Virus record (IMG/VR): IMGVR_UViG_3300047494_000100
Location: 1-64,000 of that record
Length of the DNA: 64,000 nucleotides
Strand: one strand, 5' to 3'
Source of the DNA: a virus
The position numbers and the translations under genes are program-made. The notes under the pieces were generated by a model that searched no databases, was not told the origin of the DNA, and worked only from the letters and a program-made list of their open reading frames with translations. This document shows, in pieces, positions 8,998 to 40,003 of the stretch (positions are counted from its first letter, which is position 1; every line of letters starts with the position of its first letter).

Positions 8998-9578
8998 CGT
9001 ATGTCTATGATTAAAGCAAGCTTATCATCAGCGGAATTATTAACCACTTCATGTTCTTTTTTATTATCAAACCACCAAACTTCGCCTGCTTGAGCAGTGA
9101 TACTTTCATCACCAGCACGGAACACAGAGCCAGGTAGATTTTGTAGTATGAAGTGATACCGCTCATAATAGTCTGCATGACTGCCACCATCTACGTGCGG
9201 AGCAATTCTTTTTCCAGGTGCTAGACGTGTGATCAAAACTCTTCCAAGCCTGACACCTTGCACCATTCTCATCAAGTCAAAGATTATGATCTGGGCTTCT
9301 GGTAGCTTAAACCATCCAGGATAGCAGATGCTTTCATGTTCATCTAAAACACTTGCATATTCGCTGGTGGTGGTTGCATCTTTGTAAGGCGTGAGGTCAT
9401 TAAACCTTAACCAAATATCATCAACCTCTGTATGAGGACTTGCTGCGTGAGTAGTGCGCAATTTGTTTTCGTTCCACAATTCCGGTTGTCGTTGAACAGC
9501 ATGAAGCAACGGCATATAATTTACGCCAAAAGCCAACCGAAGAAAATTTCGCATGTACTCAATACCCTGACAGTTCAA
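8985..9578 (-). CDS. Aspartyl/asparaginyl beta-hydroxylase-like 2OG-Fe(II) oxygenase (cupin)
   Basis: RIAPHVDGG...RYHFIL...[28 protein letters not shown] matches the Asp_Arg_Hydrox pattern (PH.D, R.H, FD..EHEV.N.S). Likely start is ATG 9554. Confidence 0.65.
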
Positions 9579-15765: not shown

Positions 15766-15987
15766 TTATTTCTCTTTCCAATGTGGGAGTTGGTGCTCCT
15801 GTAGAATTTTTCTCTTAGCCGCCCGTTCTTGGGCTTCTTCATTTTTAAAGTTCTTTGAAATAAGTTGATTTATCTTCCTCAACTTTTCATGGGACTCACT
15901 GTATTTTCTTTTGTCCTCCTTATACTCAGGAGAAAACTTTATCGCATCGGGTGTCATCCCAACTTCATTGCGCGGATATTTCTGCAA
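15766..15987 (-). CDS. Small charged protein, C-terminal EHQLPHWKEK (motif-A family)
   Basis: The C-terminal 20 nt are identical to those at 23385 and 23633. Confidence 0.55.
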   Translation of the reverse strand: MQKYPRNEVGMTPDAIKFSPEYKEDKRKYSESHEKLRKINQLISKNFKNEEAQERAAKRKILQEHQLPHWKEK

Positions 15988-17202: not shown

Positions 17203-18342
17203 TTAGATAGAGTCGCATACCGACACGATCCATTCCGGACGAACGTACAAGAACCCATAGAGCACATCTAAACGTGTAATCAACTGATCTGTACCAACGG
17301 TATAATCAGTGATCATGCGCATCGAGATGTTGTCGAAGGATTCACGTGCACCTTCCACAATGCCCTGCTGCGGGAGAACCAGATCCGCAGTAGCCATCGT
17401 GATAGCTTCCGGCGTATAGGCAATATTCTTACGGAATATGCTGCTGGCGGGAGTGGCTAACAGAATGGTGGCACCATTGACAGGCGAGCTGTCAACAGTC
17501 TGGTACTGAACCTGAGGGCCACCAGCAACGCCAGTAGCAGTCGGAACAATAGCCGGATAGATAGAGAGCGACGTTGCACCACTAGCAGCAGCAGCGGTCA
17601 GAACGAACTGACGCAGCTGACCAGTGGTCTGTTTAGTGATACGGTTCACGGCATTCACGTTCGCAATGGTGATGATATCACCGAGCGCCAGCGTGCCCGT
17701 AATCGCATTGACAGTGAGCGTTAAGCCCGTCTGGCCTGCGCCGTTCACCGTACCAGCGGAAAACGTTCCAGTCGTGTGCTTAAGCACCGTCTGGTCCATC
17801 ATCCACTCAAACCCAATGGCCTGCGCCATTGTGCCTGTGGTGTACTGACGCGAAATGTCAGTAATCGGGTTAAGCAGACCAGTCAGTGAACCAACGGTAC
17901 GTGCCTGGGTAAACGGATCCTGAACAATCTTCCTGCGTCCAGTAGGAGCAGAATTAACGTCCAGCGTCGCACCCGCGTTCAAGAACGTAGTAAGAATCGG
18001 GCTGATAATGTTGCCGTTGGAATCCGTGTTGGACACCAAGTTGCAAACACCACCGTCAACACCGCTCATGATGTTGGAAGCCACGGCTCCGGCCAGGTTG
18101 TTGATGCAAGGAGCAAGAATCCGCTCCGAATAATCATCCAAGCTCAGTGTGCGATCAACGGAGCTGAACGAAACGTCCACGCCCTGCTGCGTCGCCACAA
18201 CGAGTGTGGTAGACTGTTCGGTTGTATCCTGGATCTGTGCGGCTGCACCCGTACGAACGGTAAAGTCGTTAGGGAGACGGATACGAAGCTGGGAACCAAT
18301 TTTGGCACCAACCTTGGCATACGAGTCATCATCGAGTACTTT
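17203..18342 (-). CDS. Major capsid protein (P22 coat-like), exon 3
   Basis: KVLDDDSYAKVGAKIGSQLRIRLPNDF... is typical of the coat family but lacks the first ~24 residues. The track ORF can only start at TTG 18345, with TAA in frame just upstream. Confidence 0.8.
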   Translation of the reverse strand, partial: KVLDDDSYAKVGAKIGSQLRIRLPNDFTVRTGAAAQIQDTTEQSTTLVVATQQGVDVSFSSVDRTLSLDDYSERILAPCINNLAGAVASNIMSGVDGGVCNLVSNTDSNGNIISPILTTFLNAGATLDVNSAPTGRRKIVQDPFTQARTVGSLTGLLNPITDISRQYTTGTMAQAIGFEWMMDQTVLKHTTGTFSAGTVNGAGQTGLTLTVNAITGTLALGDIITIANVNAVNRITKQTTGQLRQFVLTAAAASGATSLSIYPAIVPTATGVAGGPQVQYQTVDSSPVNGATILLATPASSIFRKNIAYTPEAITMATADLVLPQQGIVEGARESFDNISMRMITDYTVGTDQLITRLDVLYGFLYVRPEWIVSVCDSI

Positions 18343-18621
18343 CAAGAAGCTTCGTTAAAACTTCTCCGCTTTTTAAAGCTGCTGTAAGTTTCCCTACAGA
18401 TAAGACTATATCATCATCTTTCGATGTTCTGTGCTTCGAGGCACTTGCCCCTACTCCCCGAAGGGATAGTCGTTGAACCTTCCGCAGTTAAGCGGCTCGG
18501 ATGCTGATTGTCCAATCCTAAATATTTTTAGCATTCACGTTTGCTTTTTAAAGCTGCGTTGTAGCTATTTAGGCTCTAAGGAGTTTCCAGCAGTTCTCAG
18601 AATTTACAACAGCAAATGACT
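18343..18621 (-). mobile_element. Group I intron A (minus strand), ~279 nt
   Basis: P1 is exon CAACAGU paired with GCUGUUG, with a U-G wobble at the splice site. Core reads GGUUCAACGACUA followed by a CCC-UUCG-GGG tetraloop hairpin. It ends in G before AAAGTA. Homologous to intron B, with compensatory changes. Confidence 0.65.
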
Positions 18622-18670
18622 ACTGTTGGTCAATATTCTGGATAACATATTCACAAATACTGACTTAATG
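18622..18670 (-). CDS. Major capsid protein exon 2 (49 nt)
   Basis: CATTAAGTCAGTATTTGTGAATATGTTATCCAGAATATTGACCAACAGT joins in frame to give ...IIKSVFVNMLSRILTNS-KVLDDD. The 5' boundary is approximate. Confidence 0.5.
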
Positions 18671-19100
18671 CCCTTATCCTTTAAGGCATTCAATTATCTT
18701 TATCGTTTATTGACAAAACACCAATGCTTAGAAGGTAGTGTTTTTCCAGAGACGGACGGCTTCACGCGTGATCATATTTCGGTAATTCAATAGGTTACGT
18801 TACTTCCTATCAGCCTTTCGGGCATCTATACATTTCTATATAGAGTAGACCATATCATCATTCTTTTTAGAATGCTCTGTGCTTCGGGACACTTGTCCCT
18901 ACTCTACTCACTTCCACCTTGCGGTGTGTTTTCGATGGTCGTTGAACCTTCACCCATACGGTGCTCGGCTGCGGGTTATCCAATATTTTGTTTTCTTAGA
19001 GCATTCACGCTTGCCTTTTCAAGCTACGTTGTAGCAACAAAATCTTTAGGAACTTCTCGCAATTCTCAGAGTTTTTTATCCTTACCACAAATATTAATAA
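18671..19100 (-). mobile_element. Group I intron B (minus strand), ~430 nt
   Basis: P1 is exon CUUACCAU paired with GUGGUAAG, with a terminal U-G. Core reads GGUUCAACGACCA followed by a CACC-GCAA-GGUG hairpin. The P8-like hairpin covaries between introns (CCGC/GCGG in A, CACC/GGUG in B). Confidence 0.6.
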
Positions 19101-19123
19101 ATGGTAAGTATACTATTAGCCAT
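19101..19123 (-). CDS. Major capsid protein exon 1 (23 nt, MANSILT-)
   Basis: ATGGCTAATAGTATACTTACCAT is preceded by AAAGGAAAC 8 nt upstream. MANS.LT is a typical coat N-terminus. In unspliced DNA a stop follows after 9 codons. Confidence 0.6.
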
Positions 19124-19348: not shown

Positions 19349-19954
19349 ATGACAGCAAAGAGTCAGTATAGCGTGCCCGGAATTTATAAAATTACCAACA
19401 TTGTTTCCGGTAAAGCATATGTTGGAGGTACAGATAACGTACAAAAAAGATGGACAAAGCACAAATGGTTGTTGTGCCTTGGCCTGCACAAACTTAAAGC
19501 ACTTCAAGAAGATTGGAATAAAGAAGGTGCAAATAAGTTTGAATTCAATATTGTGTTACAATTGCCAAAATTGCCGAAAGCTGAATTTAAGCTGCTAAAA
19601 ACTGAAAAAGAAACAGAAGTTTTGGCAGCCACTCCGAACAACTATAATCGAACAATTGGAGCGGGAGATTTTGGATTTCGACTTTCAAATGACACCAAAA
19701 AGGAACTGTCCAAATTTAATAAGAAAAAATGGGACAACCCAGAATACAAAAAACGTTTATCTGAGATCCATATGAAAAAATGGGCAGATGGCGAATATAA
19801 AAGAAAGGCAACAAAAGAAACTCGAGAAAAACAAAGTTTAGCAAAAAAACTCTACTATGAAAAAACAGGAGGGATGAAAGAAGAAACTAAAGAAAAATTA
19901 AGCAGGATTCATCAGGCTCGAATTGCTCGAGCCAAAACAAAAGAACCCTCCTAA
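19349..19954 (+). CDS. GIY-YIG homing endonuclease (I-TevI-like, NUMOD3 repeats)
   Basis: PGIYKITNIVSGKAYVGGTDNVQKRWTKH, plus repeated S..TKEKLS-type motifs. On the opposite strand to all its neighbours. Confidence 0.85.
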   Translation: MTAKSQYSVPGIYKITNIVSGKAYVGGTDNVQKRWTKHKWLLCLGLHKLKALQEDWNKEGANKFEFNIVLQLPKLPKAEFKLLKTEKETEVLAATPNNYNRTIGAGDFGFRLSNDTKKELSKFNKKKWDNPEYKKRLSEIHMKKWADGEYKRKATKETREKQSLAKKLYYEKTGGMKEETKEKLSRIHQARIARAKTKEPS

Positions 19955-20826
19955 TTCCTCCGATACCTTCCCTTACGTTCCTCAATCTGTTTCGCCCGAA
20001 GCGCATACCAATCTTCCGCGCTTGTGTTCGGATCATCTAAGGCAACGGCACCAACGGCACCTTTCCCATTGATGGGAATGACAGGAGCAGGGGCACCACT
20101 GACGGGCGTTTTTTCGACAGGCTTGTTGAGCAGTGATGCTTCAACACGCGCAAGTTCGAGCGCCATTTTCTTGGGCGCCATGCCGGCAATCTTCGCGGCT
20201 TCTTCAGGATTCATGCCCAGATGGTGAAGAATCTGGTGCGGGTTTTTAAGTTCAACCACCGTTTCCAAGAATTCGGGTGAGACCTTAGTGGGATCACCAA
20301 TGGCACCTACCATTGTCAAATTCTTAACCGCGTCATCCCAATCTTTGTATTCTTTTTTCCCTGTGTCAACAATTGTGTTGCAGGTTTCATTGAACTTATT
20401 AGCCTGGGCAATTGCCTGTGCTTTAACCAGCGCACGCTTTTCAATTTCGTCTTCCGCCAATGGGACAGGAGCCGGGGCTGGTGCAGCGGCAGGCGTTGTA
20501 GCAGCTGGTGTCTTCGCAATCTGTTCAAGCAGCGCAGCCGCACGAGCCTCCGCATTCTTCGCCTTCGCCTCGGCAGCTTCCGCCAGACGTTCAGCTTCGT
20601 AACGACGCGCCGTCAAGTCATTGATGCGCTTCTGGGCCCACTCAGGAGTGGTCTTATTATCCGCCGGAGTTACGGGCGGAGCGGCAGGGTCTGTCACCGC
20701 TGCTGGTTCAACTGGAGCGGGATCAGGAACGGAAGTATCAACCAAAAGTGGCTGGGTAACTGCATCAGGATTCGCGCTTCCATTCCCATCCACAACGGGA
20801 CTCGCACTGGTAGACTCAGACGACAT
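19951..20826 (-). CDS. Scaffolding protein
   Basis: 291-aa Ala/Pro/Glu-rich helical ORF immediately upstream of the coat gene. Confidence 0.6.
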   Translation of the reverse strand: MSSESTSASPVVDGNGSANPDAVTQPLLVDTSVPDPAPVEPAAVTDPAAPPVTPADNKTTPEWAQKRINDLTARRYEAERLAEAAEAKAKNAEARAAALLEQIAKTPAATTPAAAPAPAPVPLAEDEIEKRALVKAQAIAQANKFNETCNTIVDTGKKEYKDWDDAVKNLTMVGAIGDPTKVSPEFLETVVELKNPHQILHHLGMNPEEAAKIAGMAPKKMALELARVEASLLNKPVEKTPVSGAPAPVIPINGKGAVGAVALDDPNTSAEDWYALRAKQIEERKGRYRRN

Positions 20827-20873: not shown

Positions 20874-21170
20874 TTAGCTTAAAATATCTTTACAGTCTTG
20901 AAAACAGTTCTCTTGCCAGACCTTAGTTATTCTAGTATGGAGCGAATGTACAGAAAGCATAAGGGTTCCACTTTCTGCATGGCCACTTGCATACGTGTCC
21001 ATTATTTGATTATTCCCACTAACTATTGCTATGGCAGCCCCAATAATTTCTCCCCGTTTAGCTTTTTCTAAAGCTTCAGAAAATAATTCTATCACATCTT
21101 GGCAAGATTCTCCAGTTCCTAAATATCCTCCACAAAGTGCAAAAAACTCAGCCATTTTGTTAATCTTCAA
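20874..21170 (-). CDS. Hypothetical protein (likely start ATG 21155)
   Basis: ORF in the minus-strand chain. Confidence 0.4.
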   Translation of the reverse strand: MKINKMAEFFALCGGYLGTGESCQDVIELFSEALEKAKRGEIIGAAIAIVSGNNQIMDTYASGHAESGTLMLSVHSLHTRITKVWQENCFQDCKDILS

Positions 21171-21340
21171 ATCATCGGTGGATAGTATTTCTTGCTAAAC
21201 CATTCAGTGTTGTGCTCAGGTGAGCAGAACGGCACTTCAATTATCTTTTGCAGCTTGCGATCTTTCGTAAGATTTTTACCAGACCAATACATGCAATGGG
21301 ATTCAGGTATGGGCTTGTCGCAGATGCCACAGTGGAGCAT
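21167..21340 (-). CDS. Small Cys-rich (zinc-finger-like) protein, 57 aa
   Basis: Own translation MLHCGICDKPIPESHCMYW...VPFCSPEHNTEWF. Confidence 0.3.
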   Translation of the reverse strand: MLHCGICDKPIPESHCMYWSGKNLTKDRKLQKIIEVPFCSPEHNTEWFSKKYYPPMI

Positions 21341-21364: not shown

Positions 21365-21440
21365 TGGTGCCTGAAGCAGGCTCTGCCCCTACCGCTTCCT
21401 GCTTACAAGGCAGGTACTCTACTGAATGAGTTATTCAGGC
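21365..21440 (-). tRNA. tRNA-Thr (anticodon UGU), non-canonical D and T loops
   Basis: Cloverleaf: GCCTGAA/TTCAGGC acceptor, ACTC/GAGT D stem, CCTGC-CTTGTAA-GCAGG anticodon arm, CCA encoded. The T loop is GGCAGAG and the D loop is ATTCAGTA. Confidence 0.6.
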
Positions 21441-21445
21441 AAGAA

Positions 21446-21519
21446 TGGCTTCCTCTCCACGGCTTGAACGTGAATCTCCAGAGCCAAAATCTGACGTGCT
21501 ACCATTACACCAAGAGGAA
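21446..21519 (-). tRNA. tRNA-Gln (UUG)
   Basis: TTCCTCT/AGAGGAA acceptor (U1:A72, G73), anticodon loop TTTTGGC, T loop TTCAAGC, CCA encoded. Confidence 0.75.
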
Positions 21520-21552
21520 GTAATGGAGTTATTGTCGGAAAATCAACTTAGG

Positions 21553-21623
21553 GGTGACGTAAGAGATTTGAACTCTTTCCAGCAAATTCACAATTTGACG
21601 TGCAGCCCATACACCAACGTCAC
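21553..21623 (-). tRNA. tRNA-His (GUG)
   Basis: GTGACGT/ACGTCAC acceptor, anticodon loop TTGTGAA, T arm AAGAG-TTCAAAT-CTCTT. No encoded G-1 seen. Confidence 0.6.
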
Positions 21624-21659
21624 ACCTAAATTGACTTAGGCTTTTGACGCGATGTCGAA

Positions 21660-21734
21660 TGGTCGGAATGGCAGGACTCGAACCTGCATAATCCTGGCCC
21701 CAAACCAGGCGAACAACCTTTATCCCACACTCCG
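21660..21734 (-). tRNA. tRNA-Pro (UGG)
   Basis: CGGAGTG/CATTCCG acceptor, CCTGG-TTTGGGG-CCAGG anticodon arm, GCAGG-TTCGAGT-CCTGC T arm, ACCA. Confidence 0.8.
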
Positions 21735-21782
21735 ATGGAATAGGTCGAGGTTCTGCAGTGTTCATAAAAGTTCTTTCATATT

Positions 21783-21859
21783 TGGTAGGTGCGGAAAGAT
21801 TTGAACTTTCAACTCCTAGATTTTAAGTCTAGTGCCTCTTCCTGTTGGGCCACACACCC
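21783..21859 (-). tRNA. tRNA with anticodon UAA (Leu by anticodon), short variable arm
   Basis: CTAGA-CTTAAAA-TCTAG anticodon arm, GAAAG-TTCAAAT-CTTTC T arm, A73-CCA. The variable region is only 5 nt. Confidence 0.6.
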
Positions 21860-21866
21860 GTAAAGG

Positions 21867-21943
21867 TGGTGGGCGTACTAGGACTTGAACCTAGAAACTC
21901 CGGAGTCTAAATCCGGCGACTTTACCAATTTGCCCATACGCCC
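21867..21943 (-). tRNA. tRNA with anticodon UAG (Leu by anticodon), short variable arm
   Basis: GGGCGTA/TACGCCC acceptor, CCGGA-TTTAGAC-TCCGG anticodon arm, CTAGG-TTCAAGT-CCTAG T arm, ACCA. Confidence 0.65.
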
Positions 21944-21974
21944 GAATTTTATAGTCCGAGTCGTAATCGCAAGT

Positions 21975-22060
21975 TGGTGGGGCAACTTGGATTTGCACCA
22001 AGGAACGCCGAAGCGGAGTGTTTTACAGACACCGTGCTTTGTCTACTTGCATACTGCCCC
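21975..22060 (-). tRNA. tRNA-Tyr (GUA), long variable arm
   Basis: Anticodon loop CTGTAAA, extra arm CCGCTTCGGCG, T arm CTTGG-TGCAAAT-CCAAG, ACCA. Confidence 0.75.
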
Positions 22061-22187: not shown

Positions 22188-22376
22188 TTAAGCAGTCGGC
22201 GCAACAACCGTGGGCTCAAGCTGTGCAAGAATTGTATTTGCCGTGGTCTGTACACCAGCAACAGCCGTTGTGACAGGCGTTAAATCTACTACAGGCGTTG
22301 CAATAGCAGCAACAGCCGCCTGGAGTTCAGTTAATTGGGCAGTGATCGAAATGAGTTGGTCTTCAACAGTAGCCAT
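22188..22376 (-). CDS. Small Ala/Thr/Val-rich protein (start ATG 22376)
   Basis: MATVEDQLISITAQLTELQ..., with GGAGAA upstream. Confidence 0.45.
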   Translation of the reverse strand: MATVEDQLISITAQLTELQAAVAAIATPVVDLTPVTTAVAGVQTTANTILAQLEPTVVAPTA

Positions 22377-22423
22377 AAATATTCTCCATTTTTTAAAGAT
22401 TGATAGATATTTGCGAATGTGTT

Positions 22424-22588
22424 TCACGCCCATTCACTTTTCTCAGCACGTTCATTAAATTCTTTCCACCGCTGATCGACTTCTTTATCTAGTTCCTCAT
22501 GTGACTTCCGTCCAGGATTCATCGCCTGTGTCTGACGCCGATAGGTGTCAGTCATGTGACGGCTTATGGGCTTTATAGTAGGGATCAT
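22424..22588 (-). CDS. Small hypothetical protein, 54 aa
   Basis: Own translation MIPTIKPISRHMTDTYRRQTQAMNPGRKSHEELDKEVDQRWKEFNERAEKSEWA. TAATG overlap with the upstream stop. Confidence 0.3.
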   Translation of the reverse strand: MIPTIKPISRHMTDTYRRQTQAMNPGRKSHEELDKEVDQRWKEFNERAEKSEWA

Positions 22589-22785
22589 TATCTTGCGCCT
22601 TCATCATAGCCTTGACGATATGACTCTTCGTGTTTCTTAGTTGGAGGACTAAACTTTTCTTCACGCTTACTGTCTTTTTCACCACGCTTAAAATGCTTCG
22701 ATCCTGTCAAATAGCTATCACGTTCGTTGTCATGTTTCCAATACTTTTTATCTTCGCCCCAATAGGGATGTTCATGCTCTTTCAT
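22588..22785 (-). CDS. Small His/Lys/Glu-rich protein with N-terminal EHEHPYWGE
   Basis: MKEHEHPYWGEDKKYWKH... Confidence 0.5.
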   Translation of the reverse strand: MKEHEHPYWGEDKKYWKHDNERDSYLTGSKHFKRGEKDSKREEKFSPPTKKHEESYRQGYDEGAR

Positions 22786-22790
22786 GAGAA

Positions 22791-23015
22791 TTATTCCTTA
22801 TGGGCTTTATAGTAGGGATCATGAGAACCTCCGTTGGTGTGGCGTAGTTCGTCAGCGTGTTTATGTTCTTCCATACGATGTAACTGATAACCAGCATCCA
22901 TCGCAGACTTCACAGTTTTGTAACCCTTTTTCTCTAAGCCCATTAAAGCTTCGTGTAAATCCTTACTTGGTTCGACGGTTTCACCGTGAAGGGATGTTGC
23001 GTATTTTGATTTCAT
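22791..23015 (-). CDS. Small protein, motif-B family (GGSHDPYYKAHKE C-terminus)
   Basis: Track ORF. The motif is shared with 3 paralogues. Confidence 0.5.
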   Translation of the reverse strand: MKSKYATSLHGETVEPSKDLHEALMGLEKKGYKTVKSAMDAGYQLHRMEEHKHADELRHTNGGSHDPYYKAHKE

Positions 23016-23233
23016 TCCCCATCTCCTGCTGCTCTATCCATTGAACCACCCGGAGCATTTTCAATTGCCTGCACGTCATCACTATAGTGCGCGTTCATGA
23101 TGGGATGATTTTTGATAATTTGGCGTCCCCTCTCCTCGGCTTCCTCTGGGCTATTGGCCTTCACCTGAACGGCTGGTTCCACTTGGAACACATGCTTGCC
23201 TTTCGTGCGACCGTGAACGGAATAGGTTTTCAT
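23012..23233 (-). CDS. Small hypothetical protein
   Basis: Track ORF with overlapping start/stop on both sides. Confidence 0.45.
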   Translation of the reverse strand: MKTYSVHGRTKGKHVFQVEPAVQVKANSPEEAEERGRQIIKNHPIMNAHYSDDVQAIENAPGGSMDRAAGDGE

Positions 23234-23385
23234 TCTTGCTTCTCCGGATACATTGGATCATATGAGCCTTTACCCGCCATGCGCAATGCTTGCGCCGCAT
23301 CATGCATGTCCTGGCTAGTAAAACCACGACTTTTGTTGAAGCCCTCGAAAGGAGAAGGCATTAAAGGAACATCTATCGGATCCAT
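23230..23385 (-). CDS. Small protein, motif-B family (GKGSYDPMYPEKQE), 51 aa
   Basis: Own translation MDPIDVPLMPSPFEGFNKSRGFTSQDMHDAAQALRMAGKGSYDPMYPEKQE. Confidence 0.4.
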   Translation of the reverse strand: MDPIDVPLMPSPFEGFNKSRGFTSQDMHDAAQALRMAGKGSYDPMYPEKQE

Positions 23386-23636
23386 TAATCTTGCTTCCAA
23401 TGTGGGAGTTGGTGTTCTCTTAGTGTGGCCCGAAGACCAACTTCTTGTTGGAGACTTAGATTTGGATGTTCTCTCTTTATGGTTTTTCCCAAATTACGTT
23501 CTGCTCTAGCTGCCGCTGCTCTTAAATTACTTGGGGCTTTCGTATATTCAGTCCCAATTTCGCTTACATGCTGCGCTTTCTCAGCGGCCCGTTGGTGTGC
23601 TACTATTACCTTTGAGCTTATTTCAGAAAGTTTCAT
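23385..23636 (-). CDS. Small protein, motif-A family (EHQLPHWKQD)
   Basis: Track ORF 23385..23648. ATG 23636 makes an ATGA overlap with the upstream stop. Confidence 0.5.
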   Translation of the reverse strand: MKLSEISSKVIVAHQRAAEKAQHVSEIGTEYTKAPSNLRAAAARAERNLGKTIKREHPNLSLQQEVGLRATLREHQLPHWKQD

Positions 23637-23848
23637 TTCTCTTTCCAATGTGGGAGTTGGTGTTCTTTTACTTCCTTCATAGCTTGCTCTTTATTAGGAG
23701 CAAAATCATCTCGAGGATATGTGCCAGCAGCTTGCTCTTCTCTCATCTTCTTAACAGTCCTCATTTTGCGGTCATAGTCGAGCGAAACATGAAGATCATG
23801 CTTTTCTTTCGGCGTAAGGTGATCCAGTTCCATTGAACGTTTGACCAT
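23633..23848 (-). CDS. Small protein, motif-A family (EHQLPHWKEK)
   Basis: Track ORF. Confidence 0.5.
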   Translation of the reverse strand: MVKRSMELDHLTPKEKHDLHVSLDYDRKMRTVKKMREEQAAGTYPRDDFAPNKEQAMKEVKEHQLPHWKEK

Positions 23849-23849
23849 A

Positions 23850-24185
23850 TCAATGTACCACCAATTCAGGTTGTTTCGTTACACCCATTATTTGATCCGC
23901 GACACGCTTGTCAATGTTGCCGGGAATTTCACTGTGGCGGACTAATGCTTCGAAGATTTCTTCCTTTTGCCATTCGGGTGTGGTGCTGAAGCCCAGCATA
24001 GCGGCGAGTTGCTTCCGCGCAACTTCCACGAAACGCTTCCACTCACGGCGAACAAACATGCGTTGGTTGGGATAGTACTTGAAGAAATCATCGCTGCCCG
24101 AAGCAGCCTCCTCATAAAACGCTCCCGCAAACTCGCGTGCTGTTGCGGCGATGAGTTTATGGGTGAATTTTTGGTTGGTGGACAT
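23850..24185 (-). CDS. Hypothetical protein, 111 aa
   Basis: Track ORF in the chain. Confidence 0.5.
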   Translation of the reverse strand: MSTNQKFTHKLIAATAREFAGAFYEEAASGSDDFFKYYPNQRMFVRREWKRFVEVARKQLAAMLGFSTTPEWQKEEIFEALVRHSEIPGNIDKRVADQIMGVTKQPELVVH

Positions 24186-24379
24186 TAGGATTCTTCCCAG
24201 TGTTTGCGTTCATGTTCTTTTTGAGCGTTTTTATTTCTCAAAAGAGTGTAGGCATCAGAAGTCTTGCCTTCATGATAAGCTTTCACAGCATCTTTTCGAG
24301 CCTTGTGTTCTCCAAGATATTTTTCATGATGTTCCGCGTATGCTTTATGAAAACGTTTATCAGCCAATGTTTCAGCCAT
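24185..24379 (-). CDS. Small protein, motif-A family (KEHERKHWEES)
   Basis: MAETLADKRFHKAYAEHHEKYLGEHK..., with AAGGAG 8 nt upstream of ATG 24379. Confidence 0.45.
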   Translation of the reverse strand: MAETLADKRFHKAYAEHHEKYLGEHKARKDAVKAYHEGKTSDAYTLLRNKNAQKEHERKHWEES

Positions 24380-24380
24380 C

Positions 24381-24569
24381 TCACTTCTCCTTCCAATGTG
24401 AAAGTTGATGTTCTTTTTTCTCTGTGATAATTTCATATTGCCCTGGCCTATAGCCATAACGCTTTGCATCCGCATGGGCGTCTTCGTGAGACTGGTAATA
24501 ACCACGACTTGTGTACGCGCCACCACTGTGTGAATCCGTTCTTAGTTCATGAATGAATGGTTTGGGCAT
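24381..24569 (-). CDS. Small protein, motif-A family (EHQLSHWKEK)
   Basis: Track ORF. Confidence 0.5.
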   Translation of the reverse strand: MPKPFIHELRTDSHSGGAYTSRGYYQSHEDAHADAKRYGYRPGQYEIITEKKEHQLSHWKEK

Positions 24570-24629
24570 GTTATTCCTTCATCTCTGGAAGTTGCTTTAT
24601 CAACATCAACATAAATTTACGAAACTTGC

Positions 24630-24839
24630 TCATTTGTTTTTGTGCTTGTCTTTGTACATTGGATCATGGCTGCCTTGACCTAGCATGCGAAGCGTTTCAG
24701 CTTTCTCATGTTCAGCGCTGGGCGTCGACCCACACTGAATCTTGCCATCTTCCATGTAGTCATCGTTCACGGGAGTTTCATCAAACTTGTGAAGCTTATT
24801 CACAGTACCATAGTCGAGACCTTCAGGAGCTTCTTTCAT
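24630..24839 (-). CDS. Small protein, motif-B family (GQGSHDPMYKDKHKNK)
   Basis: Track ORF. Confidence 0.5.
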   Translation of the reverse strand: MKEAPEGLDYGTVNKLHKFDETPVNDDYMEDGKIQCGSTPSAEHEKAETLRMLGQGSHDPMYKDKHKNK

Positions 24840-24985
24840 TTCTTTTCTCCCCAGTATGGATGTTCATGTTCAGAGATTAATTCATGCTTCAGTTTTATAA
24901 TGTCTCTCTCCTTAGCAGCCACATGTTCGCGCCGCTTCTTTTTATTCTCTTCAGAATTTATGTCGTGTGAATCATTATGGAGCAT
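24836..24985 (-). CDS. Small protein, motif-A family (SEHEHPYWGEKK), 49 aa
   Basis: Own translation MLHNDSHDINSEENKKKRREHVAAKERDIIKLKHELISEHEHPYWGEKK. ATGA overlap with the next gene. Confidence 0.4.
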   Translation of the reverse strand: MLHNDSHDINSEENKKKRREHVAAKERDIIKLKHELISEHEHPYWGEKK

Positions 24986-24994
24986 TATTACTTC

Positions 24995-25255
24995 TCACTT
25001 ATTCTTATGACTATTTTCATACACCGGATCACTTGATCCCTTACCTTCTAGCCTCATTTCCTCCGCTGCTTTGTGCATGGCGGAGTGCATGGAGACTTTG
25101 GGTGAACTATATTTACTAGGATGCGCGGGATGACTAAGTGGTGTGTTCCTGGCCAATGCTTCATCACGTTTTTTAATTTGTTCTTCAGTATGAGCAACAC
25201 GGCGATCTGGAGCACGATCTTTTAGAGGAACAAAGTGATTCACTACTTTAGCCAT
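24995..25255 (-). CDS. Small protein, motif-B family (GKGSSDPVYENSHKNK)
   Basis: MAKVVNHFVPLK..., with AAGGAG upstream of ATG 25255. Confidence 0.5.
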   Translation of the reverse strand: MAKVVNHFVPLKDRAPDRRVAHTEEQIKKRDEALARNTPLSHPAHPSKYSSPKVSMHSAMHKAAEEMRLEGKGSSDPVYENSHKNK

Positions 25256-25433
25256 TGACACACTCCTTATGCACCAACGTCGCATGTTTTAGAAACACAA
25301 TGTTGCCTTCACGCGGTGTTGCGCGGGGCTTAAGTTCTGAACCCAGGGCACCAATTTCTTCACCACAGGTTTCACACTTTCCATTTTGTATCTTAGCAAG
25401 CAGGCGTTTGTAACGGTTATTGTGATTTATCAT
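25248..25433 (-). CDS. Small hypothetical protein with a CxxC pair
   Basis: Track ORF containing GKCETCGEE. Confidence 0.35.
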   Translation of the reverse strand: MINHNNRYKRLLAKIQNGKCETCGEEIGALGSELKPRATPREGNIVFLKHATLVHKECVNG

Positions 25434-25560
25434 ATATATTATATTACAACAAAAGACAACTAGTTTTATTCAACTTTATATTTTCCTTATGTATTAGTCT
25501 TTTATAGGTGTAGCTGCCTTATGCGCTTAAGAGTTTACTAACAACACAGGAGCGTACTAT

Positions 25561-25710
25561 ATGCAAACCACACAAAGCCTAGACGACTACTTCGAAGAAT
25601 GGATCGGCAAGGATATCCGACGCTATCGAGAGATGCGAGAGCAGCAAACAGCGGATTGGAAAAAGCCAAGAAACAGGTTAGAATTAAAGGAGTTCAACCC
25701 GGATGATTGA
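25561..25710 (+). CDS. Small plus-strand ORF, 49 aa, convergent with the portal gene
   Basis: Own translation MQTTQSLDDYFEEWIGKDIRRYREMREQQTADWKKPRNRLELKEFNPDD. AGGAG lies 9 nt upstream. Confidence 0.3.
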   Translation: MQTTQSLDDYFEEWIGKDIRRYREMREQQTADWKKPRNRLELKEFNPDD

Positions 25711-27840
25711 CTATTGTTCAGGAGCTGATGGTTGTTGAGCGGGAGGAGTATCACCTGCATCTTCCTCAAGATCTGGCGCACTAGCTGCCGTAACTTGCTG
25801 CAAAGATGCCTTATGCTCCTCAACCATGAGGTCATGCAACATCATCGCGATGTCTTTGGGATTCACTTGTTCTTTAATCAACACACTCATGCGATCCGTG
25901 ATCGCCTTATAGACATCGATGTCTTTCTGTTGATCCTTCGCCTTCAACTTCAGACGCTCGATGCTCAATTCCTGCGTGATGTCCACCATCAACTTCTGCA
26001 TTTTCTGCAATTCACCTTGCAGCTGGGCTACCGCTGGCGGGACGCCTTCACCCTTGGCTTGCGGGGGAACCATCCGTTCCATGCGTTCCGCAATATCGTC
26101 TGCCATTGGGAAGTCTGCTGCCTTAAATAGTAAGTCACCGATGAGGTTGACCAGCTGCGGAGCCTGTCCAAGAATCTGTGTGATTGCGTTAAAGGCTTCT
26201 TGACGACGAGTTGCATAGGCTGGGCCAATATCGGCCTCAACATCATATCTTCCAACATTGGGGTTGAATATTCCCTGTACTGTTTCATCAATCTTTTGTG
26301 TGTGCTTTGCATAAGCTTGCTGTGCCTGGGGATCCAACTTTACATGAGACTCTTCGCCATCTTCACCTATGATGCGGAGAATTCGAGGGGTGTCATAAAT
26401 CTTGGGAATTAAATCTATAAGAATCTTCCCAGTAAATCTAATTCCGACAGCCTGACCATCAATAAAGTGGTAAGTGGCATTGTCACCGCGACGCTGACGC
26501 GCATCAATTGCCTTACCAGAAATCTCGTTCGACTTATCACCAAAGTCTGCCTGGTACTGCCCAGACACCATGCTCATTTCTTCACGAGCAATTTGCATTC
26601 CCTGAATATACGCGGATGCCATCGTGGGTGGCTCAGCGCGGGCGGGCGCGGGTAATGGATTGCCATCATCATCGAATGCATTATATGGCAACACTGAATG
26701 ATTAACAGTGTTTGCGGTTTCCCAATACTGTTCAAGATTCTCTATCGATGCGGCTGCAGCAACATAAGGCGTCTTACTTTGAAGCGCCACATTTTCAACC
26801 GCGCTCGAAGACCAATAATTATAAATACGCTGAGGATCTTTTAAATTGCGAGTGTGGCCCTTGCGATCCAACTCACCATTGATGATAGTTTCCTCGCCAA
26901 CAATGCGAACGATAGGGACATACTCTCCAGCCCAATGGCGCCGTTCTGCAATTTCTTCGCCAATAATTAAATACCACTCCACCCGCCACTTATGAGTTTC
27001 ACGGAACTTTGTACCTGGGGCGTCTATAACAAGATCCATAATCTCATGCGGGACTTCACTTGCCTTTATGAGTTTGTCTTCACCAGTCGAGGGATCTGTG
27101 TATGACACTAACTTATCGGTGACACTTTCACGGCGATAATACTCCGCTACGCGGACATGCTCTTTATCAATCCATCCCGACGCATTACCCAATGCGGTCT
27201 CGCCGCCTTTGTCCTTGTACTCTGGGTATGCTGCGCGAAACTCATCCAACGGCATATCATCAAAGATGAAGCCAAAGCGCGCATCGGATCCATCAAGCTC
27301 ATTGATGTCTGGGTCAAGATAAACCGTGAGCGGATCTTTTATTCGTCGAATGAAAATCTCTTGATCAAAGTTATCATTTCCGAGATAATCGGTGACAACT
27401 CGCCAGTAGCCAATTCCACCCTGAACCTGGAAGCTAGTGGCTGTATCATACGCCACGGATGCATTGGAGATGTATTCAATGTGACGGAATATACCTTCGA
27501 AAACTTGAGCCGCTTCATAGGTCGCACCATTTCCCACTGGACGCACTGCGCAGCGCGGTTTATTCTGCTTGCAATCATTTATGATTTGCAAATTATGCTG
27601 GCGTGTTTTGTTGATGGTGAGACAGGGACGTTCATCAACGTCACGATTGCGCCTAATCTCATTCGGCCATTGGTATCCGTTGTCACTATCCGCCTGTGAA
27701 AACTTTAAGTCTTCAAGAAATAATTTCCTGGCGCGTGACTCCCATTCTTCACAATACTTGAAACGGCGTTGGGCTTCCGCAATAATCTTATCATCGCCCT
27801 TGAGACCTTCCTCATGGCTGAGCCCAGGATTATAAACCAA
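25711..27840 (-). CDS. Portal protein (P22-type)
   Basis: 709 aa. The N-terminal region RRNRDVDERPCLTINKTRQHNLQIINDCKQNKP and the position relative to terminase fit a portal. Confidence 0.8.
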   Translation of the reverse strand: MVYNPGLSHEEGLKGDDKIIAEAQRRFKYCEEWESRARKLFLEDLKFSQADSDNGYQWPNEIRRNRDVDERPCLTINKTRQHNLQIINDCKQNKPRCAVRPVGNGATYEAAQVFEGIFRHIEYISNASVAYDTATSFQVQGGIGYWRVVTDYLGNDNFDQEIFIRRIKDPLTVYLDPDINELDGSDARFGFIFDDMPLDEFRAAYPEYKDKGGETALGNASGWIDKEHVRVAEYYRRESVTDKLVSYTDPSTGEDKLIKASEVPHEIMDLVIDAPGTKFRETHKWRVEWYLIIGEEIAERRHWAGEYVPIVRIVGEETIINGELDRKGHTRNLKDPQRIYNYWSSSAVENVALQSKTPYVAAAASIENLEQYWETANTVNHSVLPYNAFDDDGNPLPAPARAEPPTMASAYIQGMQIAREEMSMVSGQYQADFGDKSNEISGKAIDARQRRGDNATYHFIDGQAVGIRFTGKILIDLIPKIYDTPRILRIIGEDGEESHVKLDPQAQQAYAKHTQKIDETVQGIFNPNVGRYDVEADIGPAYATRRQEAFNAITQILGQAPQLVNLIGDLLFKAADFPMADDIAERMERMVPPQAKGEGVPPAVAQLQGELQKMQKLMVDITQELSIERLKLKAKDQQKDIDVYKAITDRMSVLIKEQVNPKDIAMMLHDLMVEEHKASLQQVTAASAPDLEEDAGDTPPAQQPSAPEQ

Positions 27841-27843
27841 TGG

Positions 27844-27999
27844 TTATTTCTTTTTCTTGCCAAGTTTTACACTGTAAGCAATCGCTACAGCCTGCTTAGC
27901 AGCTTTCTTGGGAGATTTTCCCTTCGCTTCAATAGCTTTCACTTCCGTCTTCACGTTTTTCTTAAAAGTCTTAGCAGACTTTCCTTTAGCAAGCGGCAT
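27844..27999 (-). CDS. Small basic Lys-rich protein (KQAVAIAYS family)
   Basis: MPLAKGKSAKTFKKNVKTEVKAIEAKGKSPKKAAKQAVAIAYSVKLGKKKK. TAAGGA upstream. Confidence 0.45.
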   Translation of the reverse strand: MPLAKGKSAKTFKKNVKTEVKAIEAKGKSPKKAAKQAVAIAYSVKLGKKKK

Positions 28000-28057
28000 A
28001 AAAATATCCTTAGCTGAAATTGAATAAAAAATAGTGGGGTCATCCCACAGAAATAAC

Positions 28058-28261
28058 TCAGGCACAATCACCATAAGGTTTGCCTGCTCCTAAAAGATAA
28101 AGGGCTTCTTCAGTGCCAGTAGCACCACCACGAACTTTATTGGGCATCTCTACACCGCCTTTATCCTGTGCGGGATTATTGGCAGTTTCTATAGCAGGAT
28201 CCTGCTTCGGATCCGTGCCAATAAATCTTTTGCTATCGTGGATGTAGCCGTCCATGCTCAT
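28058..28261 (-). CDS. Small protein, LGAGxPY family (member 3)
   Basis: ...ATGTEEALYLLGAGKPYGDCA. Confidence 0.45.
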   Translation of the reverse strand: MSMDGYIHDSKRFIGTDPKQDPAIETANNPAQDKGGVEMPNKVRGGATGTEEALYLLGAGKPYGDCA

Positions 28262-28446
28262 TGCCCAGCGCCTTCATAAGGAGGTGTGTAAGGCATCCCA
28301 GCACCTAGCTGTTGTAGTGTGTTTCCAGTTCCCGCGCCATAACCCATATTGCGCTTCAGTTGTTCAATTTGGGCAATTTGCTGCAAAGGATTTGTCTGTG
28401 TGGTGTTCCCCTTTGGGTACATCGATGTATCCGTTGTCTGTGGCAT
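28258..28446 (-). CDS. Small protein, LGAGxPY family (member 2)
   Basis: ...GTGNTLQQLGAGMPYTPPYEGAGQ. Confidence 0.45.
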   Translation of the reverse strand: MPQTTDTSMYPKGNTTQTNPLQQIAQIEQLKRNMGYGAGTGNTLQQLGAGMPYTPPYEGAGQ

Positions 28447-28694
28447 TAGTATAATCCTTGTGTGTTGTAAGGAACGCCAGCACCTAATATTCCCAGGGAA
28501 TTTACTGTGCCAGGAGTGCCTCCGGTCATTTTATTTTGTGGTGTTGTTGTGCTCACCATTGGGACAGGAGCAGCGGATTGTGGTGAAGGTACAGGGGAAA
28601 TTGTCTGAACTTGTGGTGTAATCGAAGCTGCTTGTTGTGGTGCAGCCACAACGCCTGGAGGCGTACCCAACATTCCACCTAGTCTAATTGCCAT
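28446..28694 (-). CDS. Small protein, LGAGxPY family (member 1)
   Basis: ...GTPGTVNSLGILGAGVPYNTQGLY. Confidence 0.45.
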   Translation of the reverse strand: MAIRLGGMLGTPPGVVAAPQQAASITPQVQTISPVPSPQSAAPVPMVSTTTPQNKMTGGTPGTVNSLGILGAGVPYNTQGLY

Positions 28695-28996: not shown

Positions 28997-29352
28997 GCGT
29001 TCGAAGCCCAGGTGAGAATCTGGTAATATCCTGCATTCAACGGACTCATTTCAATATAGTATTCGTTCCCATTTTGCGCAGCTGCTTCTAACACACGTTG
29101 CTGAGCAAATTGTGTGTTCGTGTAGGAGTATTGTTCTGGTAATTTTATCAAACAATCGTACTGGTACATCACAGCCAATGAACCATCAGGCGCGACACCA
29201 GCGGAAGAAATCCTATTGTATACTTTAGGAAATGTTTTTGTTTTGATAGCTGATGTTTCTATACCATTTACCTGCGAGATTATCTGTGACTGCGGCGAAG
29301 ATAAAAATGTCTGCGTTGGGTATTGACTAGTTACATTTATCATCGCATCCAA
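28993..29352 (-). CDS. Hypothetical protein
   Basis: Track ORF in the chain. Confidence 0.45.
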   Translation of the reverse strand: MDAMINVTSQYPTQTFLSSPQSQIISQVNGIETSAIKTKTFPKVYNRISSAGVAPDGSLAVMYQYDCLIKLPEQYSYTNTQFAQQRVLEAAAQNGNEYYIEMSPLNAGYYQILTWASNA

Positions 29353-30923
29353 GCCCCACCTTTATAAGGAATTTGTAAATTAATTGTTTTCTTTGTACCA
29401 ATGTCGACTGGTTTTTTCTTTTCACCTACAGGCTCAGCAAACGTCAACGCTATGGCATCCCATTCATCTGGACTTCTCATCCCACGTTTTTTAATATCTT
29501 GTTTGGCCTCAATCAATAATTGACCATACATATTATGCTTATATCCTGGACTACACGCATCTGCCTGAAGACTATCGAGATCAGGAATCTGTGCTTCACC
29601 AATATCTTCAAGCCATTTTTTACTACGCATCCACATTTCAGCGCGGCGATTTGCGGGGCCACCTTTTAGGCGGTCATTGTCAACAGCGCCTTTCACTTTT
29701 GCGCGGGGAGAATCTTGTGGTGATCCACCAAAGTTGATACCCACAACAACTTCTTTGTATACACCGCCCCAACTATGGAGAATATCCAATGTGCCAATGC
29801 CCGCGCCGCCAACGTCAATAAACGCACGGTCAGGTTTGTCTTCATCAATAATCTGGCGAATCCAATTTGCAGCTTCAACCGGCAAAATCTTCAGTTTATT
29901 TTCAATCTTCTGCACCACACGGCCCTGTCGCCATGCTATGGAGAAGCGATCTTCACCGCCCCATGAAGGGTCAATGCCCAAAATAAGTGGGCCGATGGGA
30001 TCGCAATTATTCTTGCGCGCTTTTAAAATCAATGCCGGAGGAATATAGCTGTCATGCCCAGTGAGCTGAAACGCCTCTGCCGCTGTCGCCGGATATTCCT
30101 GCATGAAAAGTAAATCACCTAATTCAATAATCTTTGCTGCCCGCCATGCCATCTGCTCATCGTCAAGGCCGTGGGCTGCCTTGTACAATTCATCCGCGTC
30201 GTTCAAAGAAAAGTCAGGTGGAACTGGGCGCCGATACTCATCCTGCCAAAACCACGGGATAAAGATGGCCTCGTAGTCACTTTGTCCGGCCTCGGCCTTC
30301 TGCCATTCCTTATGAAAATAATTCCCCATGCCGTTTGCCGTTGACTCAAGAATTACTTCTGTGCCAAGGAGGTTGGGTATGGCCTGTAAAATTCCCGCTG
30401 CATGAGTGTCTGCGTTTGGCCAAAAGGCCACTTCACTTCCGTGAAATAACTGTAGCGTTTGGCTACGTCCCACAGCTTTTGTGCCTGCGGTTCCAACTTT
30501 GTATCCTGAATCTAAGAGGTCAAAATCCAATTCCTTGGCGTTACTTGCGCCAGTATGTGGTCTGACAATTTCTGGGCAATGATCATGATATCTATTTGCC
30601 ATATCAAACAAATTGTCCGTGGCGTCTTGCTCATGTGTTAAGATGAACACACGTTTGCCAAAATTCTGTGTGACATGGTGATAAAATCTTCCACCAACAT
30701 AAGTGGAACACCCCTGCTGTCGACCCTTTAAAACTAAGGCCCGCACCATGCCTCGCAAGGCAAGTTGTTTTTCAAGCCGATCGTGCAAATATAATTGTGC
30801 ACGATTCAAGATTAATGCATCAACACTACCAGCCTTTGTGCGAATCTTTAAGCACTTTTGTGCGTAGTGTGTAAAGTCATCTCTCAATCTCTGAAAAACT
30901 TTGCGCTCAGCCGCACTAACCAT
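29340..30923 (-). CDS. terL: Terminase large subunit
   Basis: LVLKGRQQGCSTYVGGRF is a Walker-A-like segment. 527 aa, upstream of the portal. Confidence 0.8.
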   Translation of the reverse strand: MVSAAERKVFQRLRDDFTHYAQKCLKIRTKAGSVDALILNRAQLYLHDRLEKQLALRGMVRALVLKGRQQGCSTYVGGRFYHHVTQNFGKRVFILTHEQDATDNLFDMANRYHDHCPEIVRPHTGASNAKELDFDLLDSGYKVGTAGTKAVGRSQTLQLFHGSEVAFWPNADTHAAGILQAIPNLLGTEVILESTANGMGNYFHKEWQKAEAGQSDYEAIFIPWFWQDEYRRPVPPDFSLNDADELYKAAHGLDDEQMAWRAAKIIELGDLLFMQEYPATAAEAFQLTGHDSYIPPALILKARKNNCDPIGPLILGIDPSWGGEDRFSIAWRQGRVVQKIENKLKILPVEAANWIRQIIDEDKPDRAFIDVGGAGIGTLDILHSWGGVYKEVVVGINFGGSPQDSPRAKVKGAVDNDRLKGGPANRRAEMWMRSKKWLEDIGEAQIPDLDSLQADACSPGYKHNMYGQLLIEAKQDIKKRGMRSPDEWDAIALTFAEPVGEKKKPVDIGTKKTINLQIPYKGGAWMR

Positions 30924-39919: not shown

Positions 39920-40003
39920 ATGTCTCTCAGTTCAGTTATAGTGTTGGGTAGGCAGTAAGGATGACAATAGGCGTGATGTGACGCCTCGTTTTAGGTCGGG
40001 ATT

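Follow-up and report, generated by a model that had tools for sequence, protein, structure and literature searches.

Our analysis shows that an array of fifteen small open reading frames (ORFs) in the viral record IMGVR_UViG_3300047494_000100 of IMG/VR encodes mutually unrelated, variable protein bodies whose shared parts are modular C-terminal tags. The array lies between a portal gene and a tRNA cluster, and the window studied here comprises positions 1 to 64,000 of the record, a portion of a 79,349-bp contig (NCBI, JGI, ENA). The tags are conserved as peptides rather than as DNA, and the small proteins that carry them are the products of real genes under purifying selection. Recombination in the tag-coding DNA moves tags among bodies and inserts or deletes whole genes, and we tentatively suggest that the tags serve to load small effectors into the assembling capsid.

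Three recurrent tags on unrelated bodies

Tag A conforms to [KQ]EH[QE]x[P]xW, typically KEH[QE]xPxW, with 1-4 (rarely 9) residues after the Trp, and three of its subtypes recur across genomes (QLPHW-K, QKPEW-GG and EHPYW-G/E). Tag B is a C-terminal module of ~26 aa, HKAAEELRxEGKGSHDPxYxxSKKNK, while tag C, carried by three consecutive genes at 28058-28694, reads LxxLGAGxPY followed by 2-9 residues; an L-G-x-G...P-x-Y skeleton is common to tags B and C. Six-frame regular-expression searches returned seven matches to EHxxx[HY]W (15778, 22759, 23397, 23645, 24197, 24393 and 24851), all on the minus strand and in ORF frames, and four to GSxDPxY (22809, 23248, 24654 and 25019). In 200 dinucleotide-preserving shuffles of the window, which set the chance expectation for A and B, motif A averaged 0.12 matches (maximum 2) against the 7 observed and motif B 0.025 (maximum 1) against 4; motif C was observed three times and never in shuffles. 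The array genes, the other tagged genes of the window and the exact repeat discussed below are as follows.

25248..25433, minus strand: g1, first array gene; 61-aa CxxC protein, untagged
24995..25255, minus strand: g2 (P0002), tag B, C-terminus ...HKAAEEMRLEGKGSSDPVYENSHKNK; ratio of nonsynonymous to synonymous substitution rates (dN/dS) 0.24 vs L081
24836..24985, minus strand: g3, tag A, subtype EHEHPYW (...SEHEHPYWGEKK)
24630..24839, minus strand: g4 (P0001), tag B, C-terminus ...AETLRMLGQGSHDPMYKDKHKNK; APEGLDYG-type body
24381..24569, minus strand: g5, tag A, C-terminus ...KEHQLSHWKEK; dN/dS 0.18 (L001 orthologue 8736-9008)
24185..24379, minus strand: g6, tag A, divergent tail ...KEHERKHWEES
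23850..24185, minus strand: g7, 111 aa, untagged; dN/dS 0.12; no Pfam or PHROG match
23633..23848, minus strand: g8, tag A, C-terminus ...KEHQLPHWKEK; carries the identical 20-mer; stop overlaps the g9 start (ATGA)
23385..23636, minus strand: g9, tag A, C-terminus ...REHQLPHWKQD; carries the identical 20-mer
23230..23385, minus strand: g10 (P0005), tag B, C-terminus ...AQALRMAGKGSYDPMYPEKQE
23012..23233, minus strand: g11, 73 aa, untagged; orthologues in L081, L085 and L099
22791..23015, minus strand: g12, tag B, C-terminus ...ADELRHTNGGSHDPYYKAHKE; dN/dS 0.15; orthologue L081:8778-9008 (P0089)
22588..22785, minus strand: g13, 65 aa, A motif N-terminal (MKEHEHPYWGED...)
22424..22588, minus strand: g14, 54 aa, decayed A tail (...NERAEKSEWA)
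22188..22433, minus strand: g15, Ala/Thr/Val-rich, untagged; last gene before the tRNA cluster; L081 orthologue 85-93% identical
15766..15987, minus strand: outlying tag-A gene, ...QEHQLPHWKEK; downstream of the capsid and HNH genes; carries the identical 20-mer
28446..28694, minus strand: tag-C gene 1, C-terminus ...NSLGILGAGVPYNTQGLY; between terminase and portal
28258..28446, minus strand: tag-C gene 2, C-terminus ...NTLQQLGAGMPYTPPYEGAGQ
28058..28261, minus strand: tag-C gene 3, C-terminus ...EALYLLGAGKPYGDCA
22797..22822, no strand assigned: 26-nt exact direct repeat, copy 1, in the B-tail coding DNA of g12
22563..22588, no strand assigned: 26-nt exact direct repeat, copy 2, at the g13 3' end and g14 start; reads DPYYKAHK in another frame

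The original prediction, made from the letters and their ORFs, had described a His/Lys/Glu-rich array of ~14 small genes between the portal gene and the tRNA cluster. All of its ORFs are present at their coordinates on the minus strand, and the flanks are as described (a phrog_156 portal and 6-7 tRNA genes), although the count down to the tRNA cluster comes to 15 ORFs because g15 also belongs. The composition is borne out by a three- to fourfold enrichment in His and a twofold enrichment in Lys and Glu: the array has 6.4% His, 10.7% Lys and 10.2% Glu vs 1.7%, 5.3% and 5.5% in ten long ORFs. Its proteins are strongly hydrophilic, with grand average of hydropathy (GRAVY) values of -0.8 to -2.3.

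Once the tails were trimmed, no pair of bodies aligned at BLASTP E < 0.01 in a 16-sequence database of window genes; with the tails kept, every significant alignment takes in the tails, and multiple alignments show the same pattern. The earlier idea of two interleaved paralogue families therefore survives for the tails, which are homologous, but not for the bodies, which are unrelated, with tails exchanged between orthologous ones. Such exchanges are seen repeatedly among relatives. The g3 body bears the HPYW subtype in the window and EHQKPEWGG in L001:7270-7470, and the g5 body the LSHW subtype in the window and KEHQKPEWGG in L001:8736-9008. The body of g14 has tag A in L081 (...ALKEHEKSEWA), a remnant lacking 12 nt in the window, and tag B instead in L001 (...KSKDPVYQDQQKNKKK). 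Similarly, seven orthologous bodies resembling DUF6582, 57-68% identical to the relatives' body P0027, carry six different A tails. Tags are also fused, A-then-B in L001:7692-7880 and L001:10676-10918 and B-then-A in L101, and tag A is found on a 117-aa GNAT-like protein (L104:7086-7439) that matches four GNAT families of Pfam at 20-25 bits.

Selection acts on the peptide

The codon-position analysis covered ~20 tails of tag A and ~20 of tag B, drawn from 6 genomes (the window and five contigs of relatives). Third-position entropy reaches 0.59 and 0.92 bits at the invariant Glu and His of tag A, 0.59 bits at the Tyr of tag B and 1.86 bits at its invariant Pro, for which all four codons are used, and the conserved Ser of tag B is written with both TCN and AGY codons. 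Because codons vary in this way where the residue does not, selection must act on the peptide. The window A copies at 24851 and 22759 point the same way, with four differences, 4/4 of them synonymous. When genes of the window are paired with their orthologues in L081 or L001, the proportions of nonsynonymous (pN) and synonymous (pS) sites that differ are 0.05-0.38 and 0.34-0.92, and pairs with unsaturated dS give a dN/dS of 0.12-0.24. Together with the identical 20-mers described below, these values uphold the view that the protein is what is conserved and that DNA has, in addition, recently been exchanged.

The same values speak against reading the motifs as by-products of a repeated nucleic-acid element, be it a ribosome-binding site (RBS) or coupling signal, a promoter or a recombination junction, with ORFs left unconserved in relatives, a possibility that the original prediction itself had raised. 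Part of the pattern does fit such an element. Purine-rich codons after the tag-A Trp (TGG-AAAGAGAA-ATG, TGG-AAGGAGAAG) fall at the expected Shine-Dalgarno position of the next gene, 5-10 nt upstream of its start (TGGAAAGAGAAATG in the window, TGGGGAGG in L001), and read TGG AAA GAG AAA TGA in the window and TGG GGA GGN in L001. The residues after the Trp are probably under a second constraint, since their codons would supply the Shine-Dalgarno sequence of the following gene and couple its translation. The coupling proposed earlier therefore holds for these codons and leaves the EH...W core and tag B unexplained, and the start overlap then proposed is absent at the g5-g6 junction, where the two genes are adjacent (TGA, G, ATG). 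An exact 20-mer in three copies and the 26-nt direct repeat around the g13 unit would also suit a repeated element. Against this, tag B extends over 26 aa without Shine-Dalgarno-like sequence and is followed by a gap of variable length, the distance from motif to stop varies, and the third-position and TCN/AGY variation at invariant residues remains unaccounted for. The repeat analysis found no inverted repeats at the tails, Rfam detected only tRNAs and two group I introns in the window, and terminator patterns do not coincide with the tails; frame-independent conservation at the level of nucleotides or structure, as in attC sites, promoter-stem-loop (PeSL) elements or promoter or RBS repeats, was not found. 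As a sole explanation a nucleic-acid by-product is largely refuted, and we regard it as highly improbable.

Conservation close to the stop codon could alternatively mean that the tails act as C-terminal degrons or as ribosome-arrest peptides and so tune protein level or downstream translation, and the C-terminal place, the conserved Trp, Pro and Tyr and the tight coupling of the genes would all suit such a role. Arrest peptides do not fit, however, because the Trp or Tyr stands anywhere from 1 to 9 residues before the stop rather than at a fixed spacing; the charged termini (KEK, KKNK) are unlike any bacterial C-terminal degron known to us, and the A motif also occurs at the N terminus, in g13. 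We consider this role very unlikely indeed.

Shuffling of tails and genes

Copies of an exact 20-mer (plus-strand form TTCCAATGTGGGAGTTGGTG) start at 15776, 23395 and 23643. The identity of three A copies had been noted before; three exact copies there are, but one belongs to the outlying gene at 15766-15987 and not to the array. That gene, just downstream of the capsid gene, is the sole tagged gene of the window beyond the array and the tag-C trio. The 26-nt exact direct repeat, in turn, bounds a 234-nt unit that contains g13, and L081 has no g13 between g12 and g14. The repeat accounts for the B motif that reads out of frame at 22563-22588, which is a recent 26-nt duplication. Other genes with an N-terminal A motif akin to g13 are L001:8029-8241 and L081:7958-8098.

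The identical 20-mers and the 26-nt repeat make it clear that the DNA of the tags is also recombination homology; short coding tags double as such homology, so that genes and tails are swapped, fused and inserted. This resembles the hyperplastic regions and morons of phage genomes, such as the small ORFs flanked by PeSL elements in T4-like phages, in that content differs among close relatives and short boundary repeats mediate the shuffling. In contrast to those regions, the repeated boundary here is coding and selected as a peptide, not an intergenic promoter or stem-loop. Whatever the function of the tags, the locus shows clearly how very small genes are shuffled at the level of domains.

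Distribution of the arrays among phages

Tagged arrays were found in the relatives L001, L081/82, L083, L085/86, L088, L099, L104-106 and L107, where the tagged genes lie between portal and scaffold. Counting nine related phage types with enough flanking sequence, tagged genes occupy the portal-scaffold or the terminase-portal interval in 9/9; tag C holds the terminase-portal position in every relative of the clade and now and then appears inside arrays. Outside this group, a credible tail was found in 0/79 further viral contigs that encode a related portal (37-65% identity); in 53 of them the sequence extends 2 kb or more beyond the portal on its downstream side. Seven of the 79 loci gave one regular-expression match each; five look like chance matches in unrelated ORFs and two are terminase C-termini. 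The arrays thus appear to be limited almost exclusively to a narrow clade of phages with P22-like portals. Within it, the APEGLDYG-type body of g4 is found again in L081, L083, L085 and L088, and g1 has orthologues in L081 (67% identity) and L099; Pfam gives just weak zinc-finger hints for g1. The untagged g7 has tblastn matches in 30 related loci, array-less ones such as L002 included, and is the sole conserved core gene of the portal-to-scaffold interval.

The database search with family profiles, proposed as a check at the outset, proved productive for tag B: an exhaustive search of 1.84 billion representatives with a tag-B profile returned 68 clusters (50% identity), all of proteins of 51-128 aa in which the match reaches the last residue. 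On these matches tag B is a true family. A degenerate DNA pattern for tag B gave 3 chance matches only among 185,579 species genomes, one true match (L096) and five chance matches in JGI metagenomes, and in IMG/VR L001 only. The JGI matches L092-L095 and L097 are ORFs of metallo-beta-lactamase fold (HxHxDH), B3-type-like, that contain ...SAEVLRKGGxGxxDPQYG, and were judged to be due to chance from the design of the pattern. The three motifs provide simple search handles for unannotated phage proteins, with at least 68 tag-B clusters and none of them in Pfam or PHROGs.

The phage itself is distant from those in databases. Its portal is at most 54% and its DNA polymerase at most 51% identical to any phage of the collection, and the array DNA has no similarity match among 50,697 phage records. 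The nearest database phages, at 38-54% identity, have Pseudomonas and Acetobacter (portal) and Bordetella (polymerase) as hosts.

No described family

As first stated, the array proteins belong to no recognized family: none has a match in Pfam at the curated threshold, in PHROG, in PADLOC or among PDB sequences, and the tag-B profile gave chance matches only, with E above 2, against PDB sequences. The AlphaFold2 (AF2) model of g2, which carries tag B, has a mean predicted local distance difference test (pLDDT) score of 65 and a helix at HSAMHKAAEEMRLE, where the tag reads AAEEMRLE. A DUF6582-like tag-A protein is modeled as a confident helical hairpin (pLDDT 83-87) with a flexible, low-confidence tail (pLDDT 55); Foldseek of this model against the PDB returned generic helical hairpins only, with E above 2. 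The likeness of this body type to DUF6582 (PF20223), a family without known function, stays below threshold: the tag-A bodies P0027, P0028, P0030 and L081:7671-7955 of relatives match at 16-22 bits (best 21.8) where the gathering threshold is 27.3 bits, and array genes of the window have no DUF6582 match. A literature search found nothing relevant on DUF6582 or on comparable phage loci. The tagged proteins thus belong to no described family, no search for membership in a known one having succeeded.

Composition suggests one role that needs no partner, in which the proteins, rich in His, would bind metal or protect in the manner of hydrophilins, the tails being part of that chemistry. The His content, the low GRAVY values and tails with EH...HW or SHDP would be explained in this way. 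Yet many A tails of relatives keep a single His (KEHQKPEWGG), so that metal binding, one of the functions first proposed, cannot be general, and g10 has one His; the invariant Trp, Tyr and Pro would be left unexplained as well. We judge such a role improbable.

Capsid targeting as a proposed function

Since the same tags occur on unrelated bodies, they would act independently of the body, and we suggest that they dock the proteins onto a single shared partner or a small number of them. The candidate partner is a component of the assembling procapsid, that is, the portal, the scaffold or the inner coat surface; a procapsid component seems likeliest because the tagged genes flank the portal and scaffold genes on the same strand and are packed like a single transcription unit. 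The tags would then load a changing set of small effectors into the capsid for co-injection with the DNA. This proposal of capsid targeting during procapsid assembly is one that we favor tentatively and with less than even confidence, and a procapsid component ranks first on account of genomic position, orientation and packing, the T4 and encapsulin precedents and the loose likeness in layout between tag B and the scaffold C-terminus. Of the three functions first put forward, namely packaging or targeting, metal binding and modification, a packaging or targeting signal is the most plausible. The more specific proposition that three interchangeable C-terminal address peptides recruit effectors, a mini-acetyltransferase among them in one relative, to portal, scaffold or coat for injection with the DNA strikes us as rather doubtful. 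Similarly speculative is the idea that the system would do for a tailed phage what cargo tags do for encapsulins, and would parallel the capsid-targeting sequence (CTS) of T4, though with C-terminal peptides and independently of a protease.

In concept, the closest known system is the internal-protein locus of T4, whose small, unrelated, fast-evolving proteins share only a short conserved terminal peptide (PMC3012670). As with the CTS of IPI, IPII and IPIII, a variable locus is tied to head assembly, and the tag functions on foreign bodies. Contrasting with the three C-terminal tags here, the T4 sequence is N-terminal, binds the scaffolding core and is cut off by the prohead protease; in the window the tags stand at the C terminus except in genes of the g13 type. 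The phage type differs too, with a P22-type portal, scaffold and coat here, and packaging is a prediction only. Pfam and PHROG scans of 46 of the 53 window ORFs of at least 120 aa, the others being one plus-strand ORF inside the array and six at 57012-63976, found no protease family and in particular no prohead protease, and the head module is P22-like.

Encapsulin cargo proteins carry C-terminal targeting peptides, for which an HK97-fold shell has a binding pocket on its inner surface (PMC8229669). Both cases combine short C-terminal peptides, unrelated proteins, flexible linkers and genes adjoining the shell gene (PMC8229669), in our case the portal/scaffold/coat block. Tags A and B are, however, unlike the consensus targeting peptides GGDLGIRK or TVFSLIQ, a sequence match is not demonstrated, and the capsid of a tailed phage must hold DNA too.

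The P22-type scaffolding protein carries a C-terminal, coat-binding helix-turn-helix. In the window the scaffold C-terminus, ...ALRAKQIEERKGRYRRN, comprises a helix, a Gly, an aromatic residue and a basic end, and tag B (AEELRxEGKGSHDPxYxxSKKNK) has the same general layout, a likeness of composition and position only.

Several points weigh against a capsid function. The tagged proteins are known here from their genes, their presence in the capsid is predicted, and the docking partner is a candidate chosen by gene position. The place beside the portal may simply tolerate the insertion of accessory genes (morons), and for these reasons our confidence is limited. P22-type capsids are not known to contain small internal proteins in large number, and the ejection proteins of P22 itself have their genes at another place. 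Neither precedent is matched in sequence: the T4 targeting sequence has the N-terminal, protease-cleaved form already described, and no tag clearly resembles an encapsulin peptide, tag C (LGAG) alone being vaguely like GGDLGIRK. The timing of transcription is deduced from gene order, consensus promoter and terminator scans being uninformative. Finally, one tag-B protein (L100 4449-4835; ENA ERZ27313052, contig k141_1082245, 42% GC) lies beside cellular-looking genes, namely GAF-GGDEF, a DUF433/DUF5615 pair and a nitroreductase-family (PF00881) protein. This contig may be a bacterial chromosome or a prophage edge and as such a possible exception to the portal-linked context; it gives a hint to the host, at a guess a cyanobacterium.

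Terminase C-termini are portal-docking elements in other phages. Those of the terminase large subunit (TerL) in the window (29340-29420), L001, L002, L003, L081, L083, L088 and L104 end in a conserved ...G-x-W-[ML]-[KR], with the Trp 2-4 residues from the end. Given this Trp layout, which recalls tag A, and the docking role of such termini elsewhere, tag A might use the same portal site as TerL; we do not count the resemblance, limited to a Trp near a basic C-terminus, as more than a lead.

If the tags were address labels of this kind, they would constitute a compact transferable signal of 8-26 aa that marks proteins for recruitment, possibly into the capsid. They would reveal by what route accessory effectors are delivered in podoviruses with P22-like portals, would point to a reservoir of uncharacterized candidate anti-defense or host-takeover proteins and would provide a naturally occurring tag with which foreign proteins could be packed into phage particles.

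Possible partners other than the capsid

The modularity that argues for docking fits equally a set of short linear motifs that bind a host hub or another, non-structural phage protein, with the tagged proteins engaged in host takeover or counter-defense and never packaged. Like many phage host-takeover proteins they are small, hydrophilic and mostly flexible, their repertoire turns over fast among close relatives, and the tag-B gene of L100 stands in a cellular-looking context. The genes are nevertheless always found in the head-assembly block rather than in an early region, cellular carriers of the motif were not found among the species genomes searched beyond the chance matches, and no host protein is known as a candidate partner. 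We think this possible, though rather unlikely.

A partner could also be an enzyme, with the tails as recognition or substrate sites for hydroxylation, acetylation or processing like that of ribosomally synthesized and post-translationally modified peptides (RiPPs). The structural module does encode an Asp/Asn beta-hydroxylase-like protein (8985-9578, PF05118, E = 1e-13) and a GNAT (8527-8997), tag B has an invariant Asp-Pro-x-Tyr, and the L-x-x-L-G-A-G of tag C is, by what we take to be a loose likeness, similar to the end of a double-glycine leader. As dedicated modifiers of the tags, this pair was rejected for lack of co-variation with the arrays, which weakens the modifying-enzyme function first proposed: hydroxylase and GNAT are present together in 9-11 array-less related loci and missing from the available part of array-bearing L085, which reaches the genes that flank the pair in the window. 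Among the 46 scanned ORFs there is no radical-SAM, YcaO, lanthipeptide, peptidase or transporter gene of the kind that accompanies RiPPs, and a conserved tail on a variable body is the reverse of most RiPP precursors. Modification of this sort appears distinctly improbable. As an operon, the hydroxylase-GNAT pair (8527-9578, minus strand) in the tail/structural module is kept in ~10 related phages regardless of arrays.

Surroundings of the array

The region is an accessory-gene island within the head-morphogenesis block of terminase, portal, scaffold and capsid genes. All genes of the array region are on the minus strand, and array neighbors overlap by 1, 4, 8 or 10 nt or lie 1-9 nt apart, with one 60-nt gap. 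The block is arranged as follows.

29340-30923, minus strand: terminase large subunit, then a few small genes before the portal
25711..27840, minus strand: P22-like portal gene (phrog_156, E = 1.4e-114), upstream anchor of the array
25433 down to 22188, minus strand: array of fifteen small ORFs
21368-22060, minus strand: tRNA cluster, 6-7 tRNA genes, then two small ORFs before the scaffold gene
19951..20826, minus strand: scaffolding protein gene (phrog_8865, E = 7.5e-20), downstream anchor, C-terminus ...EDWYALRAKQIEERKGRYRRN
18382-18693 and 18826-19109, minus strand: two group I introns (Rfam RF00028, 60.9 and 77.3 bits), directly upstream of the major capsid ORF
17203-18345, minus strand: major capsid protein gene, TTG start, 380 aa vs 404 aa in a relative

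The position of the introns suggests that the capsid gene is probably split by self-splicing introns. A GIY-YIG ORF (19349-19954, plus strand) and an HNH/EndoVII ORF (16103-17089) stand on either side of the capsid gene. In the tRNA cluster, the seventh tRNA (21368-21440, minus strand) is detected by Rfam and not by ARAGORN, and a separate tRNA-Pro lies outside it at 39994-40065.

From the portal stop to g1 there is a 277-nt AT-rich gap (25434-25710), 27 nt long in L081, which holds a 49-aa plus-strand ORF (25561-25710) and promoter-like hexamers; consensus scans for sigma-70 promoters and terminators gave no usable operon boundaries. Between tRNA cluster and scaffold, a gene at 21167-21340 (minus strand) encodes a 57-aa zinc-ribbon-like protein, CxxC...FCSPEH, conserved in L081 (9843-10016), whose ...SPEHNTEWF is a superficial match to the tag A pattern. 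Just upstream of the portal gene, 27844-28074 (minus strand) encodes a very basic small protein (...KGKSPKKAAKQAVAIAYSVKLGKKKK) that is kept in L001, L081, L083, L088 and L099 and that, to judge from its composition, could be an internal DNA-binding protein.

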